A stretch of 64,000 nucleotides of DNA, taken from the NCBI GenBank assembly GCA_001794125.1, contig MGJF01000002.1:172514-236513 (forward strand), in the 5' to 3' direction. This document shows, piece by piece, positions 2 to 55,396 of the stretch (the stretch's first letter is position 1; each line of letters starts with the position of its first letter). Under the pieces are notes generated by a model, which was not told the origin of the DNA, did no database searches, and saw nothing but the letters and a program-made list of their open reading frames with translations. Origin of the DNA: Candidatus Yanofskybacteria bacterium RIFCSPHIGHO2_01_FULL_43_32. Its GTDB lineage: Bacteria; Patescibacteriota; Minisyncoccia; 2-02-FULL-40-12; GWA2-44-9. The position numbers were made by a program, and so were the translations under genes.

Positions 2-271
2 CAAATAGATATAGAAGCGTGGATGCCAGGACAGAATCGCTATCGTGAAACTCACACCGCAGACCTCATGACCGATTATCAGGCAAGGCGTCTCGGGATT
101 AAAGTAAAACGAGCCGGTGGAACAGAGTTTGTCCACATGAACGATGCTACGGCTTTGGCTCTTAGTCGAACCCCGATTGCCATCATGGAGAATTATCAAA
201 CTAAGAAAGGTACTATTGAGATTCCTAAAGTTCTTCGCAAATACATGGGCGGGATTAAAGAGATTAAATAA
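2..271 (+). CDS. serS: seryl-tRNA synthetase, C-terminal fragment (5' end lies outside the window)
   Basis: Translation ends ...TPIAIMENYQTKKGTIEIPKVLRKYMGGIKEIK, the class II SerRS C-terminal signature (ENYQ...G.IEIP.VL..YMGG). The frame is open to the window edge. Confidence 0.75.
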   Translation, partial: QIDIEAWMPGQNRYRETHTADLMTDYQARRLGIKVKRAGGTEFVHMNDATALALSRTPIAIMENYQTKKGTIEIPKVLRKYMGGIKEIK

Positions 272-507
272 TCGCTCCGCCCGACACCTTATTTCAGCCC
301 GTTCCGATTGCTCCAGCGATTGGCTCCACTTGTCCTCACGACGGCGGGTCCAGCCTGCCATATCATGATGTTTATTGAATAGCATTACTCATCTGACGGA
401 AAGCCTAAAGCTTGAATAGCTTCTCTCGCGAACTATGGCATGGACACCAAGCCCGCCTGTTCGGACGGGCTTCAATAAGATGCCGGGCTGCGCTTACTAT
501 TTTAGGC

Positions 508-649
508 AAACAAAAAGGGCCACATTGGCCTCTAAAAACGATGAACCCCGTGTTGCAACACGGGGGGGCTTTTGACGCAGGCATCTGTCCGTGAGGGGAC
601 CAGATGTGCAGTTCCTGCCGCCGGGCCTGCCCATGAACCCGGTCTCACG
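508..649 (-). ncRNA. candidate small RNA (~140 nt) bounded by a promoter and a terminator on the minus strand; identity unknown
   Basis: The minus strand carries TTGACA, an 18-nt spacer and TATACT (plus coords ~657-686). A GC hairpin ggccaatgtggcc followed by cuuuuuguuu lies at plus ~508-531. The segment between them is GC-rich with nested helices (GCAGGC/GCCUGC, CAUCUG/CAGAUG, CGUGAG/CUCACG). The ORFs here look like junk. Confidence 0.3.
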
Positions 650-956
650 ATATAACCAGTATATCATACTCGAATTAATATGTCAAGAGGGCGCAGTCCT
701 GTTGCTTTTATGTCACTTTGATGAGACGACAGATGTAGTTTAAGCGAGCCAGCCATATACCCCCAGGGAGAACTTGCGCAGGCATTTCGGCTTGGTTCTG
801 CGAAATGCCGAGCATGTAGATAGCGCCGAGCCGCTGGAGCGAGGCGACTATCGGTCGAGTCGGGGGTATGTGGCTGGGGGCGAATTAGAAAAATGATGGG
901 ACAGAGCGAAGTCACAGATATATAGTTGAAGTCTAAATTTTTGATATAATAATGCT

Positions 957-1778
957 ATGCGACCCGTAAATATGAAAAAGTTAAATTACAAAGATGAGGT
1001 GGCGCAGCGGCATCGCCGGGCTCTTATTTTAAAGATTGCGGTAATGGCGCTTGGGACGATTGCTGTCGTGGCCGGGCTAATTTATCTTTTATTTTTCTCG
1101 CGGCTCTTTGACATACGGGAAGTAAGTTTTAACGGTTTGGATACGATGAGTTCCGATGAGTTCCGAAGGAAAATAGACAATACGCTTAACCAAAAGATAC
1201 TTAAATACCTGCCCCGGAAAAACAATATTTTTTTCGTGAATATTCGTAATTTTGAAAAAGAATTCGCTTCGGCTCACCCCGTCTTTAAATCGGTGAATAT
1301 TCAAAGAAAACCGCTTCACGGTCTGGTGTTAAATTTCTTGGAGAGAAAGCCGGCCGGGGTGTGGTGTTTCACTTCGACAAGCTCAGTACAAGTAAGCCAC
1401 TGTTCTTATTTTGATAGCGATAAGGTTCTCTGGGGCCAGCCAGCCAGGTCATCGGGCTTTATATTTCTGACCATTGAAGATCAAAGAAGAGGAACTGAAA
1501 GGAAGATAGATGATGAATTTTTCAAGCCAATAATGGAAGTGGCAAAAAGCATGGTCGGAGAAATAAAGAGCATAGTAATACAAACGGACTCGTTTAATGA
1601 ATTCCGGGTTTATACGACTGATTACTATATTATTTTTTCCGCCGATTCTGATATCCAGAATCAGCTGGATATCCTGAAAATATTTATGAACGAGAGAAAC
1701 AAAGACACTCAGCCAACTGGCGGATTCCATCCGCAATACATTGACCTGCGAATCGACGGCAGAGTTTATTATAAATAA
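957..1778 (+). CDS. ftsQ: cell division protein FtsQ/DivIB-like (N-terminal TM, POTRA-like region)
   Basis: One N-terminal TM helix, then a motif like FDIREVSFNGLDTMSSDEFRRKI typical of the FtsQ POTRA start. The gene sits next to murB. A candidate -10 box TATAAT is at 943-948. Confidence 0.5.
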   Translation: MRPVNMKKLNYKDEVAQRHRRALILKIAVMALGTIAVVAGLIYLLFFSRLFDIREVSFNGLDTMSSDEFRRKIDNTLNQKILKYLPRKNNIFFVNIRNFEKEFASAHPVFKSVNIQRKPLHGLVLNFLERKPAGVWCFTSTSSVQVSHCSYFDSDKVLWGQPARSSGFIFLTIEDQRRGTERKIDDEFFKPIMEVAKSMVGEIKSIVIQTDSFNEFRVYTTDYYIIFSADSDIQNQLDILKIFMNERNKDTQPTGGFHPQYIDLRIDGRVYYK

Positions 1779-2099
1779 CCCGCTCAACCCTTCCCATTTT
1801 CGACCTGCTTTCTAAAGCTAAGCTCACGCCTCATCCCGCCTTTTCATCTTATTCCTAAGTTTGAATAAATGGCCGATAATCAACAGGGGAGTATCGCTAT
1901 TAATGATTAAGGCGAAGGATAACCGGCTTAGAGGAACGACCCGCAGGCGCTTGGGCTTGGTTCCTCCAAGCGCCGAGGGAGAAGAAATTTTTATCGCTGG
2001 AATAAAAATATTCTGGTTCCGAGAAGCCGGTTAGCTCTCGCCTTTGGTTAACAAAAAATCAAGTATTTTGCGAAACACTGAATATGATATATTTAAAAT

Positions 2100-3089: not shown

Positions 3090-3096
3090 GGTGGGC

Positions 3097-3125
3097 TTGA
3101 CTTTATGGTCTGACTTTGCTATACT
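3097..3125 (+). promoter_or_regulatory. sigma70-type promoter (TTGACT, 17-nt spacer, TATACT)
   Basis: -35 TTGACT at 3097-3102, a 17-nt spacer, and -10 TATACT at 3120-3125. It sits just after the murB stop and is read directly from the sequence. Confidence 0.45.
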
Positions 3126-3131
3126 GTATAG

Positions 3132-3815
3132 ACAATCAGTTCTTTACATAGGGCCTCATAAAAAGGGCCCGAAAAAAACCAGTAAATACCTCATTATCCA
3201 GGCATTCAAGTAAGATATATTTGGCCTTTAAGGACATAGACATTTGTAGAAGTATTTCATGATTAGTTCTCAAGTTGTATGATTTGCTGGTTTTTTTCGG
3301 GCCCATCTATGCCCAACAAGATGGCCCGGCGCAGTCCTTATACCCAAGACGGGACATGCGGAAGGAGTTAACATGCTCCTCTGTGTGTGACTGCGCCGCG
3401 GCCTCAGTATCGGCAGGACAAAGTTGCCTGCCGACCCTCGGCGGAAAGTGGTGTTGACGAAGAGGGCAACAACAAAACCACACCGCCGCCAGGCGCCGAC
3501 TGGGGGAAAATACCCGGCCGGTCTTAGACGGCCGCTCCGCGCCGCGAAAATTCGCGCGAAGCGGCCGTCATCCACGTCAGCATTCCGGGAATGGTGGATA
3601 ACCCGGGTCTCGCCGACCAATAAGTGCGGGATTTTCAACCACTCGGGAGAGGCGTATCGTCTCTCCCGTCCAAACCTTTCTCGCCCAGGCATAACGCAAA
3701 GAAGGGAGGGTGAGCGGTTGGAAACTTAGCGGGGAAGCCCGCGGTAAAAATACTTCGCTTTGGCAAGGTGTGCGATACACCTTCCACGGGCCCTAACGGG
3801 CCTGTTTTCTTTTGT
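3132..3815 (+). ncRNA. candidate large structured non-coding RNA (~680 nt), identity unknown
   Basis: Bounded by the 3097-3125 promoter and the 3789-3815 terminator. The segment 3270-3800 is ~60% GC in a ~40% GC genome, and every ORF on both strands translates to Arg/Pro-rich junk. An 18-bp long-range inverted repeat pairs 3165-3182 with 3287-3304. Strong GC helices are present, e.g. gacggccgctccgcg...cgcgaagcggccgtc with a cgcgaaaattcgcg apex, and cggcgg...ccgccg. Confidence 0.3.
3789..3815 (+). terminator. intrinsic terminator (ggccc-taac-gggcc then a U-run)
   Basis: A 5-bp GC stem with a taac loop followed by tgttttcttttgttt. It is oriented for a plus-strand transcript even though the next gene is on the minus strand. 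Confidence 0.5.
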
Positions 3816-3822
3816 TTAAAAA

Positions 3823-6832: not shown

Positions 6833-7261
6833 ATGTCCGACAGAAAGTTAATTATAATCATGACCTGTATCCTTGTTGTACCGTCAGTGGCCTTAGTAGC
6901 GATTATGGTTCTTATAGGCTTGGGTCGTGGCGACGGCATCGAACCCGGCAAGACATACGCCCTCGCTTACTCTTACAAGGCCACGATCAAGGGCGGGACG
7001 CCGGCTCGCGTGTTTGACTTCTCGGACAGGAGCCTTCCACGGACTTCCGTCGTGGTTCCGCTTCGTGATGACCGTGGCATGCCGCTGGTTGAAGAAATCT
7101 CGAGCATGCCTCAGAGCACGGTTCGGAAGGTCGTCGCCAGTGTTCCAACTCGGACAGTAGAAGGTGTGACCTATCCCGGCTACACTTACGTGGTGTGGCA
7201 ATACCACCTTAGCGTGGTTGGGTCGCAGAGCGTGGTCCCCGAAGTCATTCCCGGCAAGTGA
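6833..7261 (+). CDS. hypothetical small membrane-anchored protein carried on a GC-rich (probably foreign) segment
   Basis: N-terminal TM helix (IIIMTCILVVPSVALVAIMVLIGL). The ORF is ~60% GC, unlike the flanks. It has its own promoter and a multi-hairpin terminator. Overlapping ORFs on the other strand reflect the GC-rich composition. Confidence 0.4.
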   Translation: MSDRKLIIIMTCILVVPSVALVAIMVLIGLGRGDGIEPGKTYALAYSYKATIKGGTPARVFDFSDRSLPRTSVVVPLRDDRGMPLVEEISSMPQSTVRKVVASVPTRTVEGVTYPGYTYVVWQYHLSVVGSQSVVPEVIPGK

Positions 7262-7269
7262 GCGCAATC

Positions 7270-7326
7270 GCCCCGGAGGGCGTAACCAGAAATCGTGGTT
7301 ACGCTTCCTCCGGAGGCGGTTTTTTG
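7270..7326 (+). terminator. cluster of three GC hairpins ending in a T-run
   Basis: cgccccggagggcg, gtaaccagaaatcgtggttac and cctccggagg are followed by cggttttttg. Confidence 0.45.
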
Positions 7327-7363
7327 ATACTTTGAACTTTTATTGCCAATCATCATTTATCAT

Positions 7364-7452
7364 TTAAGCAACCGGCGGAGGGTGTATGTCTTTTTAAAAT
7401 TAGCAAATTTTTAAAAGGCATACCCCGCAGTATGCATGGAGGTTATGTGAGC
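7364..7452 (+). repeat. copy A of a ~90-nt structured intergenic repeat family (copies at 7364, 28755 and 29622)
   Basis: Shares ttaaRcaaccggcggaggg ... aaaattagYaaRatttt ... gcatRgagSttRtgtgaRc with the other copies. The central stem differs between copies but stays complementary: gtatgtcttttt/aaaaggcatac here versus gtgccccttt/aaaggggcac in copy B. Confidence 0.6.
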
Positions 7453-7516
7453 TGTTAAAAATGATGAGGCAGAGCTTGTGGAATATTGGTTTTTATTTTT
7501 GTGCTACAATTAAACC

Positions 7517-28743: not shown

Positions 28744-28754
28744 TAAATTTTATA

Positions 28755-28844
28755 GTTCACACAAGCTCTATGCGTACGGAGGGAGACGCCTTTTTAAAAA
28801 TTTACTAATTTTGTAAAAAGTGTCTCCCTCCGCCGGTTGCTTAA
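28755..28844 (-). repeat. copy C of the ~90-nt structured repeat, in inverted orientation
   Basis: On the minus strand it reads ttaagcaaccggcggagggagacactttttacaaaattagtaaatttttaaaaaggcgtctccctccgtacgcatagagcttgtgtgaac. The stem is extended relative to copy A (cggagggagac/gtctccctccg). Confidence 0.6.
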
Positions 28845-28915
28845 GTGGTTGGTGGCAACTGGCAATAAAAGTTCAAACTCTCTTCGAAACTGGCTTAAAA
28901 AGCCAGTTTTTGGTC

Positions 28916-28944
28916 TTGCAATTTCATTTTGAGTGTGGTATAAT
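28916..28944 (+). promoter_or_regulatory. sigma70-type promoter (TTGCAA, 17-nt spacer, TATAAT) for the NADAR gene
   Basis: It follows the terminator hairpin ctggcttaaaaagccag plus a T-run at ~28890-28915. Confidence 0.4.
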
Positions 28945-29050
28945 TAAATAGTTAGTAATCCGTTCTTTTCATTTTTGGAGGTGTGATGAGAGGTTTCTTT
29001 TTCTTCTTTATCTTCGGTCTGTTGAGCGGAAAAAAAAGAGGAGGTAGAGA

Positions 29051-29515
29051 ATGCCAGTCTTGAATATCGGTAGCAAGTCAGACGACTGGCGTGCCTGTCG
29101 CTTGAGCAATTTTTCAGCCGATGCTTTTGTGCTTGATGGAGAAAGAATGGCTTCTGTTGAGGGGTTCATTCAGGGGACGAAATTTCCTGATGGACACCCG
29201 ACTCGACAGCAGATATTTCAATCCGTCGGCGTAGAGGCAAAGCGGTTCGGAAAAAAGGCCGAGCGAAAGTTCGTCTGGTGGAATGGTCGAGCCATCTCCT
29301 ACGGCTCACCTGAACATCACGAACTCATCGAGAGGGCTATCCGTGCAAAGTTCGAACAGAATACAACCGCAATGGATGCTCTTCTGGCAACCAGGGGAAT
29401 GATACTAACGCATGACCTTGGCCATCCAGACCCGCCGAACACATCACTTCCAGCCAAAGTCTTCTGCGACATCCTGACCAGGATTCGTGAGGAGACTCTC
29501 CGGGCCCGTAAGTAG
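29051..29515 (+). CDS. NADAR (YbiA/DUF1768) domain protein
   Basis: RLSNFSADAFVLDGERMASVEGFIQGTKF matches the NADAR motif LSNF...F.LDG....S.EH..Q..KF. The ORF is ~58% GC, well above the flanks. Confidence 0.6.
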   Translation: MPVLNIGSKSDDWRACRLSNFSADAFVLDGERMASVEGFIQGTKFPDGHPTRQQIFQSVGVEAKRFGKKAERKFVWWNGRAISYGSPEHHELIERAIRAKFEQNTTAMDALLATRGMILTHDLGHPDPPNTSLPAKVFCDILTRIREETLRARK

Positions 29516-29621
29516 CGAAAGCGAAAGCGGGCTTTGTCATTTTAATATTAAGCAAGCGTAGCTCTTGCAACTTTATTTCATTTCTACCTTGAATCTTGCT
29601 TATTAATTATCAGCTATAAAC

Positions 29622-29711
29622 TTAAACAACCGGCGGAGGGTGTGCCCCTTTATAAAATTAGCAAGATTTTAGAAAGGGGCACACCGCAGCACGCATGGAG
29701 GTTGTGTGAGC
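29622..29711 (+). repeat. copy B of the ~90-nt structured repeat
   Basis: ttaaacaaccggcggagggtgtgcccctttataaaattagcaagattttagaaaggggcacaccgcagcacgcatggaggttgtgtgagc. A TATAAT box follows, immediately upstream of the next ATG. Confidence 0.6.
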
Positions 29712-29763
29712 AATTGAAATAAGGTGCTGGGTGGAGCGATTTTTTTTATGATATAATGAACCA

Positions 29764-30039
29764 ATGGGATTTTTCTTTAATACAAAACCGAAGGCAACAA
29801 AAGAGGAGTTCCAAAAAGTCAGGAACTATCTTTATTCGATGGGCTTTACTCACAAAGAACTGGAGCGAATCAAGGAGATTTTCCGTTCGGATCTGGATGA
29901 GTCCGCGAGTTATGAGCGAGGGATTTCCGGCGAAGAAATTGACAAAGGAATCCAATGGATGAGAGCCAATGTGAATATCCATCACATCTCTGCGTCTAAA
30001 ATAGATATTTTAGAGAAAGCCCTCAAGTCAAAGTTGTAA
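29764..30039 (+). CDS. hypothetical small protein (91 aa)
   Basis: An ORF directly after a TATAAT box, possibly leaderless. A palindromic terminator follows. Confidence 0.4.
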   Translation: MGFFFNTKPKATKEEFQKVRNYLYSMGFTHKELERIKEIFRSDLDESASYERGISGEEIDKGIQWMRANVNIHHISASKIDILEKALKSKL

Positions 30040-55131: not shown

Positions 55132-55396
55132 CCGCTCCGCCCCATTACCTCTCTCCAACCGTTCGCATTCCCCCGCGAGGAATGCTCACTTCATTCTCTG
55201 TCCGGATTTTGTCAAGTCCTTCGACAAGCTCAGGACTATGACAATCCGTGCAATCCGGATTCGAAAGATTGTCGAGAGGCAATGGGGCTGCGCGTTTACT
55301 AACCAAATATGAGCGAGGCCATTGCCATAAAAAGACATTTGAGACCCGGCCTTTTGCAGGGACGAGGCAGTATAATTATTCTGCACTGTCGAGAAT

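Follow-up and report, generated by a model that had tools for sequence, protein, structure and literature searches.

A GC-rich intergenic island between serS and ftsQ in a Patescibacteria genome, interpreted as an insertion of dispersed hairpin-bounded repeats

The stretch of DNA analyzed here, 64,000 nucleotides (nt) from contig MGJF01000002.1 of Candidatus Yanofskybacteria bacterium RIFCSPHIGHO2_01_FULL_43_32 (hereafter the window), belongs to a Patescibacteria genome and carries a GC-rich island between the genes serS and ftsQ. This island is likely a recent insertion built from a superfamily of small, non-coding, hairpin-bounded repeats dispersed among Yanofskybacteria-like Patescibacteria, which would constitute non-autonomous mobile DNA akin to MITEs (miniature inverted-repeat transposable elements) or to REPINs, the hairpins formed by repetitive extragenic palindromic (REP) sequences. 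This interpretation is favored because near-identical copies of the components occur at unrelated sites, the island is absent from close relatives, elements nest in one another, and assemblies break inside them.

Composition of the island

The island covers 685 bp (positions 272 to 956) between the serS stop codon (269 to 271, the end of the gene) and the ftsQ start codon at 957. Its GC content is about 52% (0.50 to 0.54 in 200-nt windows), against 0.434, or 43%, for the whole window; an earlier note made from the sequence alone had likewise called the island GC-rich. A non-coding island is supported: none of its open reading frames (ORFs) has a Pfam match, in line with the description of these ORFs as junk in the same note. 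The island consists of four parts, which are an element named elC (272 to 498), a unique middle segment (499 to 688), an element named the el unit (689 to 908), and the putative ftsQ promoter region (909 to 956). The first of these elements lies on the minus strand and the full-length el unit on the plus strand, so that they stand back to back, in opposite orientations, around the unique 190-bp segment.

Structure and distribution of the el elements

The full-length el unit (689 to 908, plus strand) is composed of an outer helix, P0, a 5' extension (710 to 744), a core, and a tail. The core (745 to 882, plus strand; 138 nt) is of the el1 subtype and scores 160 bits with a covariance model derived from 11 copies. 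This model finds exactly two el cores in the window, the second being of the el2 subtype and located at 1910 to 2044 (plus strand) in the ftsQ-murB spacer (76 bits; fold z = −5.2). A repeat scan likewise returned 777 to 812 as recurring at 1942 to 1977 in that spacer with a fully compensated stem, which is the P2 stem of el2 relative to el1 (GGCGCUUGG/CCAAGCGCC against GGCAUUUCG/CGAAAUGCC). Both regions adopt one architecture when folded, and the segment from 735 to 905 folds far better than its shuffled counterparts (z = −4.0). In el1, helix P1 is formed by 749 to 764 with 862 to 877, and two hairpins follow, P2 at 781 to 809 and P3 at 819 to 852. The hairpin ggcatttcg...cgaaatgcc, which the earlier note had listed among the unexplained hairpins of 760 to 900, is real, and the hairpins of that region belong to the el core, in which this one forms P2.

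In the core, P1 with its 16 bp is followed by a junction AGRGAGRAAC and then by a helix of 3 bp and an internal loop GCA/GA; P2 and P3 come next, and a junction GGUCGAGUC leads back to P1. P2 has 9 bp and an invariant loop GCUUGGUUCUK, and P3 has 14 bp, a C[GCNG]G at its apex, and a bulged A; the loops vary hardly at all. As modeled, the core is shown to be a three-way junction in which the stems covary freely and the loops do not vary. A pseudoknot between J1 (AGAAC) and L2 (GUUCU) is possible in this model, with both sides invariant or, in subtype 3, inconsistent.

Standard base pairs fill 93.0% of the cells in the alignment of the genome copies and 93.8% in an independent metagenome set, percentages that are inflated by the fitting of these alignments to the model; when the 3' partners were slid, the values were 33 to 44% and 31 to 46%, respectively. 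Changes on both sides of the pair are seen at 36 of 42 pairs in the genome set and at 40 of 42 in the metagenome set, and the observed values were reached by none of 500 shuffles in either set. It can be argued from the model-based alignments that the covariation signal is real, because of the slid controls and the many types of pair. The el cores contain 102 G-U and U-G pairs versus 18 A-C and C-A combinations, and the fold is therefore selected on one strand, either as RNA or as single-stranded DNA.

A degenerate pattern derived from the conserved hairpin retrieved approximately 25 true copies from Patescibacteria genomes, with up to at least nine in a single genome, along with nine chance matches in GC-rich bacteria. 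In groundwater metagenomes, the pattern gave more than 113 matches, and the covariance model recovers 85 copies there. Phage, plasmid, and viral collections yielded nothing, a single viral match of the pattern being rejected because the covariance model did not confirm it. The copies are closely similar across unrelated sites. By blastn, positions 742 to 885 of el1 are 93% identical to a site at another locus in the related contig L004, whose flanking genes are only 66 to 77% identical. The el1 core is 93 to 98% identical to copies at unrelated loci, and an identity of 96% or more is reached by 76 pairs of cores whose flanks are unrelated, while the FtsQ proteins of the hosts are only 60 to 79% identical.

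Outside the core, many el copies are alike over some 55 nt on the 5' side, the extension, and some 25 nt on the 3' side, the tail, and the outer parts of these two form P0. In the window, P0 pairs 691 to 709 with 889 to 907, with 16 of the 19 positions paired, and compensatory differences in this helix occur among eight copies. The blastn similarity of the unit to other copies runs accordingly from 691 or 695 to 898. TTGAC-like motifs before the el cores were considered as promoters and rejected, as they are irregularly spaced and part of the conserved 5' extension.

elC and the shared terminal motif

The element elC (272 to 498, minus strand) is a rod-like hairpin of 227 nt, closed by a terminal helix of AGCGCAGCCCGGCAUCUUAUU and GAAAUAAGGUGUCGGGCGGAGCG; 2 nt separate its 3' end from the serS stop codon. 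A stretch of 231 nt in L120 (5914 to 6144), in another genome and another context, matches it at 91% identity. Both of its ends match L030 (4794 to 5119), and the motif of its 3' end is found again in the window at 29720 to 29745. The predicted rods of the window and L120 copies have 64 pairs in common, and the differences between the two sequences lie nearly all in loops; two touch paired columns, and in these the pair is kept. Many G-U pairs occur on the minus strand of the element.

The elC and el units are each closed by a long terminal helix that bears a common end motif, 5'-AGCG(A/C)...GGAGCG-3'. The end sequence of P0, AGCGCAGCCCC...GGGGCGGAGCG, closes several elements of unlike interior, including an "empty" hairpin of 40 nt, the element at 55133 to 55294, and elC itself. 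The outer helix of the P0-type elements and of elC is conserved in sequence, and the core helix P1 covaries between subtypes. Elements of different families adjoin or nest in each other, and members of two further families, el-B and el-D, stand beside el elements.

Absence of the island from related genomes

The loci compared (L numbers) are contigs that encode FtsQ homologs, and these homologs carry the labels Yanofskybacteria or Paceibacterota. The gene order Asp/Lys-type tRNA synthetase, serS, ftsQ, murB, and PMT is kept among the relatives, and the serS-ftsQ spacer varies. In L047 to L050, whose FtsQ is 78 to 79% identical to that of the window, the spacer amounts to 3 nt (TAG CCC ATG). 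It measures 0 nt in L001 (FtsQ 76% identical) and 82 nt in L004 (62%), and in L002 and L003 (74% and 69%) it holds a conserved gene of 113 to 114 amino acids. The earlier note had taken a lack of conservation of this spacer in related genomes as an argument against its own candidate RNA, and the spacer is indeed not conserved in any of these relatives. The 3-nt spacer in relatives with a 76 to 79% identical FtsQ argues, as far as comparison of the loci goes, that the entire segment from 272 to 956 is a recent, lineage-specific insertion. The covariance model finds no el core in L001 to L003. Decay of a gene was rejected as the origin of the island, since its ORFs lack Pfam matches and a tblastn search with the 113-amino-acid spacer gene of L002 and L003 found no trace of it in the window.

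Contigs of the same species are 99.9 to 100% identical across those portions of the island that they include. The complete island is spanned only by L040, besides the source contig L039, and the remaining same-species contigs break within it, at 274, 286, 768, and 835, the behavior to be expected of repeats. Ends of contigs inside elements are also frequent elsewhere. An apparent 60-nt spacer in L043 and L046 was rejected as a strain polymorphism because both contigs start inside el1. In L044 (1 to 1510), another contig of this species, the island, from window position 274 onward, is joined to a class II tRNA synthetase gene on the minus strand instead of serS; this junction at the end of elC reflects either a rearrangement mediated by repeats or a misassembly.

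Genomic setting of the copies

The el copies are almost exclusively intergenic (93 of 95), the other two overlapping a called ORF. Their orientation with respect to the 3' neighbor is mixed, with 46 convergent versus 31 codirectional cases. When the neighbor is convergent, the 3' end of the element lies within −9 to +6 nt of its stop codon in 21 of the 46 cases. Among the stop codons within 40 nt of an element, TAG is overrepresented (TAG, TAA, and TGA number 19, 11, and 1 there, and 141, 317, and 65 in the background). Clustering of 367 neighboring ORFs revealed no recurrent protein, only housekeeping genes and an artifactual ORF that reads through the element, which fits non-autonomous elements. 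No gene-sized insert bounded by the end motifs within 5 kb, as an autonomous element might be, was found. Y1 transposases are missing among ten small ORFs of the window, as are REP-associated tyrosine transposases (RAYTs) among the neighbors.

Interpretation as mobile DNA and comparison with known repeats

The elements may then be seen as non-autonomous mobile DNA of the MITE or REPIN kind, which would propagate by way of, or be recognized as, a strand-specific single-stranded fold. They would build up at the small number of places where a compact genome tolerates them, right beside stop and start codons, nesting side by side. At the present locus, the insertion would have divided a previously contiguous serS-ftsQ pair, supplied hairpins able to end serS transcription together with an outward minus-strand promoter, and given ftsQ a new extended −10 promoter. 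The putative ftsQ promoter region (909 to 956, plus strand), as read from the sequence, contains the extended −10 element TGATATAAT at 942 to 950. A similar TGATATAMT follows elements at 29745 to 29765 and in L120 at 6150.

With REPIN and REP sequences, which depend on RAYTs, IS200-like transposases of the Y1/HUH type, the elements share a short, non-coding, multicopy, and intergenic character and a long imperfect hairpin. Further likenesses are recognition as a strand-specific single-stranded fold, the lack of target-site duplication, near-identical copies with unrelated flanks, and evolution as families within and between genomes. The elements described here differ, however, in being larger (138 to 230 nt) and branched with invariant loops, in ending in AGCGA...GGAGCG and not in GTAG or CGTC, and in housing several structurally unrelated interiors under one outer helix; moreover, no RAYT gene was found in the DNA examined, which comprised the small ORFs of the window and the neighbors of the copies. 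MITEs, such as the Correia elements of Neisseria, the enterobacterial repetitive intergenic consensus sequences or intergenic repeat units (ERIC/IRU), and the Rickettsia palindromic elements, are likewise non-autonomous, 100 to 250 bp long, and provided with terminal inverted sequences that form a hairpin. They also insert beside genes, and the promoters and terminators that they carry can rewire their neighbors. In contrast to MITEs, the elements described here show no duplication of TA or of another target, the terminal helix of the core covaries instead of being conserved in sequence, the G-U asymmetry is strong, and a called ORF is overlapped by only 2 of 95 copies. The host also differs, being a streamlined Patescibacteria genome of the 1-Mb class.

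Several points weigh against mobile repeats as the explanation. No transposase, recombinase, or reverse transcriptase was found next to any el copy, and the sequences flanking about 95 copies show no target-site duplication. A site empty in one strain and filled in another was not found, all same-species contigs that reach an element carrying it, and mobility is for this reason deduced from distribution only. Classical inverted repeats bound by a transposase keep their sequence, whereas that of the core helix P1 changes from subtype to subtype, and the paired percentages come from model-fitted alignments. Invariant loops, covarying stems, and the excess of G-U pairs are just as expected of a family of functional RNAs. 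Finally, the middle segment (499 to 688) is left unaccounted for by a model of mobile repeats.

A structured RNA family as an alternative

It is possible, although doubtful, that the el and elC elements are expressed structured small RNAs with a protein-binding, regulatory, or catalytic role, whose many copies are selected genes, two of which lie in the island. Such a family would account for the invariant loops and junctions (GGCUUGGUUCU, C[GCNG]G-A, AGRGAGRAAC, and GGUCGAGUC) next to covarying stems, and for the 102 to 18 preponderance of G-U over A-C on one strand. The three-way junction resembles the architecture of known functional RNAs, and cores at least 96% identical are found across genomes with diverged proteins. 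However, there is no consistent promoter or terminator around the copies, and their orientation relative to the gene at the 3' end is mixed (46 convergent versus 31 codirectional). The copy number, the nesting, the contig breaks, and the absence from L001 to L003 look like selfish spread. A more far-reaching proposal, for which the odds are rather poor, combines both ideas: the 138-nt el core would be a previously undescribed class of structured RNA, possibly catalytic or protein recruiting, that rides on or constitutes a new strand-specific mobile element of Patescibacteria, inserted exactly at gene boundaries and often abutting or supplying the TAG stop of a convergent gene, and the families with AGCGA...GGAGCG ends would represent a new mobilization system of ultra-small genomes.

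The middle segment and the candidate small RNA

The unique middle segment (499 to 688; 190 bp) contains a promoter and terminator-like hairpins. Searches of 935 kb of related loci, of phage and plasmid collections, and of viral contigs revealed nothing similar to it. It also has no homology to the regions of the other strong promoters of the window, and a shared promoter cassette was rejected on these grounds. The earlier note had placed in it a minus-strand small RNA (sRNA) of about 140 nt, bounded by a promoter and a terminator.

The promoter described in that note is present, with its consensus boxes matched at 11 of 12 positions, although the spacer is 17 nt and not 18. It is of the sigma-70 type (658 to 686, minus strand) and consists of TTGACA at 686 to 681 and TATACT at 663 to 658, with TG upstream. 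Matches of at least 11 of 12 number five in the 64 kb, versus 1.6 expected from shuffles, and each of the other four is located upstream of a codirectional gene. This rarity, together with the location of the other four, indicates that the match is more than chance, and the promoter is probably functional as far as such motifs allow.

The site that the note had taken for the terminator is found at 508 to 530 on the minus strand, as the hairpin GGCCAAUGUGGCC followed by CUUUUUGUUU (530 to 508, GGCCAATGTGGCC plus CTTTTTGTTT). It is weak, with a stem of 5 bp, and sites of this kind are no more common than in shuffles (two found versus 2.6 expected). In L030, too, a similar hairpin with a T-run stands before the elC copy. 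On the upstream side of this site, in the minus-strand sense, adjoins a stronger hairpin (548 to 567), a perfect 8-bp palindrome (CCCCGTGTTGCAACACGGGG) that is read from the sequence and present in the predicted folds. It could be a bidirectional terminator because T-rich sequence follows the hairpin on both strands.

The candidate RNA itself would extend for 144 nt from a presumed transcription start at 651 to the U-tract at 508 (minus strand). Its boundaries are consensus matches only (a promoter at 11 of 12 and a 5-bp hairpin with a U-tract), its fold is unremarkable (z = −1.3, equaled or bettered by 21 of 200 shuffles), and it has no Rfam match and no homolog in the 935 kb of related DNA. 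Of the bounded sRNA, the promoter and the terminator-like site stand, and stability of the fold and conservation do not. A promoter-to-terminator unit of about 105 to 140 nt on the minus strand is possible, and a transcript from the middle segment is plausible from these signals.

That this transcript is a species-specific sRNA, about 105 to 140 nt long, initiated at TTGACA-17-TATACT and ending at one of the two hairpin and U-tract sites, is a tentative proposal that we consider unlikely. It would agree with a promoter that is one of only five such matches in 64 kb, four of which precede genes, with the two terminator-like hairpins at suitable distances downstream, and with the 99.9 to 100% conservation of the sequence among same-species contigs. 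The identity is confined to the species, however, and the sequence is missing from every syntenic locus of the relatives; the weak fold, the lack of an Rfam match, and the lack of homologs in the 935 kb of related DNA or in the viral, phage, and plasmid sets likewise tell against such a gene. Outward promoters are, moreover, frequent in mobile elements, and the promoter alone is hence no proof of a gene. The 140-nt bounded unit probably reflects incidental transcription from inserted DNA and not a conserved sRNA.

Recombination sites and known RNA families

The position of the elements after stop codons, with the fold on the strand opposite the gene, brings to mind the attC sites of integrons, and by this analogy the elements might be single-stranded recombination sites used by some recombinase. 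The variable terminal structures of attC sites combine conserved structure with variable sequence and a branched interior, and the elements described here show the same three traits. In the 21 of 46 convergent cases given above, the 3' end of the element and the stop codon of the gene lie within a few nucleotides of each other, and the folded, G-U-rich strand is then the bottom strand of that gene. Nonetheless, such a role is highly improbable. The elements end in AGCGA... and ...GGAGCG and lack the core sites of attC (R''/R', RYYYAAC/GTTRRRY); they are scattered among housekeeping genes (serS, for example) instead of forming tandem arrays of ORFs and sites, or gene cassettes; even a single contig (L063) has them in mixed orientations; and no integrase is seen among the neighbors.

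That a degenerate or minimal form of RNase P RNA resides in the island, or a different universal RNA, for instance transfer-messenger RNA (tmRNA), 6S RNA, or signal recognition particle (SRP) RNA, can practically be dismissed: this idea has in its favor only two short G+C-rich strings resembling the P4 strands of bacterial RNase P RNA (RNaseP_bact_a/b), and it faces the lack of any model match and of the conserved regions CR-I to CR-V, a wrong spacing, and the absence of the region from relatives. The string regarded as the 3' strand of P4, CAGCCCGGCAUCUUAUUG, belongs instead to elC, as the 5' arm of its terminal helix, where it pairs with 273 to 300. The earlier note had itself called the resemblance superficial, and rightly so. 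Rfam at the gathering score retrieved only five tRNAs from the whole window, and a permissive scan of 150 to 1100 gave no match to RNase P, tmRNA, 6S, or SRP RNA even at E ≤ 10; ARAGORN found no tmRNA. Neither the el core nor elC nor the middle segment matches any family of Rfam 15, and at both gathering and permissive E values nothing relevant was found on the island, the el2 spacer, two other GC-rich islands, or seven related loci.

Significance for Patescibacteria genomes

If the elements are indeed mobile repeats, they are of a known kind, the dispersed hairpin repeats of bacteria; a literature search brought up no account of repeats like these in Patescibacteria. Extreme streamlining is ascribed to Patescibacteria (the candidate phyla radiation), and yet the genomes described here contain several families of structured repeats of 100 to 230 nt, one of which by itself reaches nine or more copies in a genome and exceeds 100 copies in groundwater metagenomes. 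These repeats account for the GC-rich "intergenic islands" of the window, break metagenome assemblies, and give rise to spurious ORF calls, as with the ORFs of 41 to 43 amino acids annotated inside el1 and el2. They can also rewire operons, here by separating serS from ftsQ and leaving ftsQ with a putative promoter of its own. A covariance model of the el family would allow the masking or labeling of regions otherwise mistaken for sRNA genes. Should the core prove to be a functional RNA, or a mobilizing enzyme be found, the result would be a new RNA class or transposition system from an understudied branch of the tree.

Further repeats and other features of the window

The P0-closed element at 55133 to 55294 (minus strand; 162 nt) lies in a GC-rich spacer and has a terminal helix of CGCGCAGCCCC...GGGGCGGAGCG with a different interior. 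A 51-nt segment upstream of el2 (1820 to 1870) is 92% identical to L001 (116 to 166) in inverted orientation and resembles the 5' arm of a P0-type element without its partner; judged by this likeness, it is probably a solo half-element.

The second structured repeat family, el-B, is about 130 nt long and occurs in the window at 7331 to 7459 (plus strand), 28748 to 28877 (minus strand), and 29622 to 29719 (plus strand). It follows the pattern AAGCAACCGGCGGAGGGUGU ... loop UUAGCAA ... GGAGGUUGUGUGAGC with covarying stems, and copies are also present in L002, L015, L021, L032, and L120. Between 28748 and 29745, two inverted el-B copies surround a GC-rich ORF of 154 amino acids (29051 to 29515) that matches Phage_30_3/NADAR (E = 1.7e-29), an arrangement that looks like a repeat-flanked cargo gene. 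The solo elC-type 3' end at 29720 to 29745 directly follows this el-B pair (28748 to 29719). The el-D family consists of repeats of about 110 nt with the ends CCCUAAUCCAUU...AAUGGAUUAGGG, which often adjoin el cores; one is located in L004 (1733 to 1852), and others occur in L008, L072, L099, L122, and L148.

A GC-rich (55%) ORF of 142 amino acids at 6833 to 7261 (plus strand) has a strong ribosome-binding site and an N-terminal hydrophobic segment and no Pfam match. It is flanked by a TTGACA-18-TATACT promoter (6742) and a terminator (7270 to 7325), with an el-B copy directly after. Between murB and the PMT gene lies a single-copy, non-coding region of 60% GC (3090 to 3822, plus strand), unrelated to the el repeats, with a strong promoter TTGACT-17-TATACT (3098 to 3126), a long-range helix of 23 bp (3165 to 3187 with 3282 to 3304), and a terminator (3787 to 3815). 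A minus-strand ORF of 140 amino acids that gene finders call within it (237 in L001) has no Pfam match and looks spurious. The region has no Rfam match; blocks of it are conserved in eight or more related genomes, where it occupies the same syntenic position, which makes it a candidate for a conserved non-coding RNA of about 690 nt.

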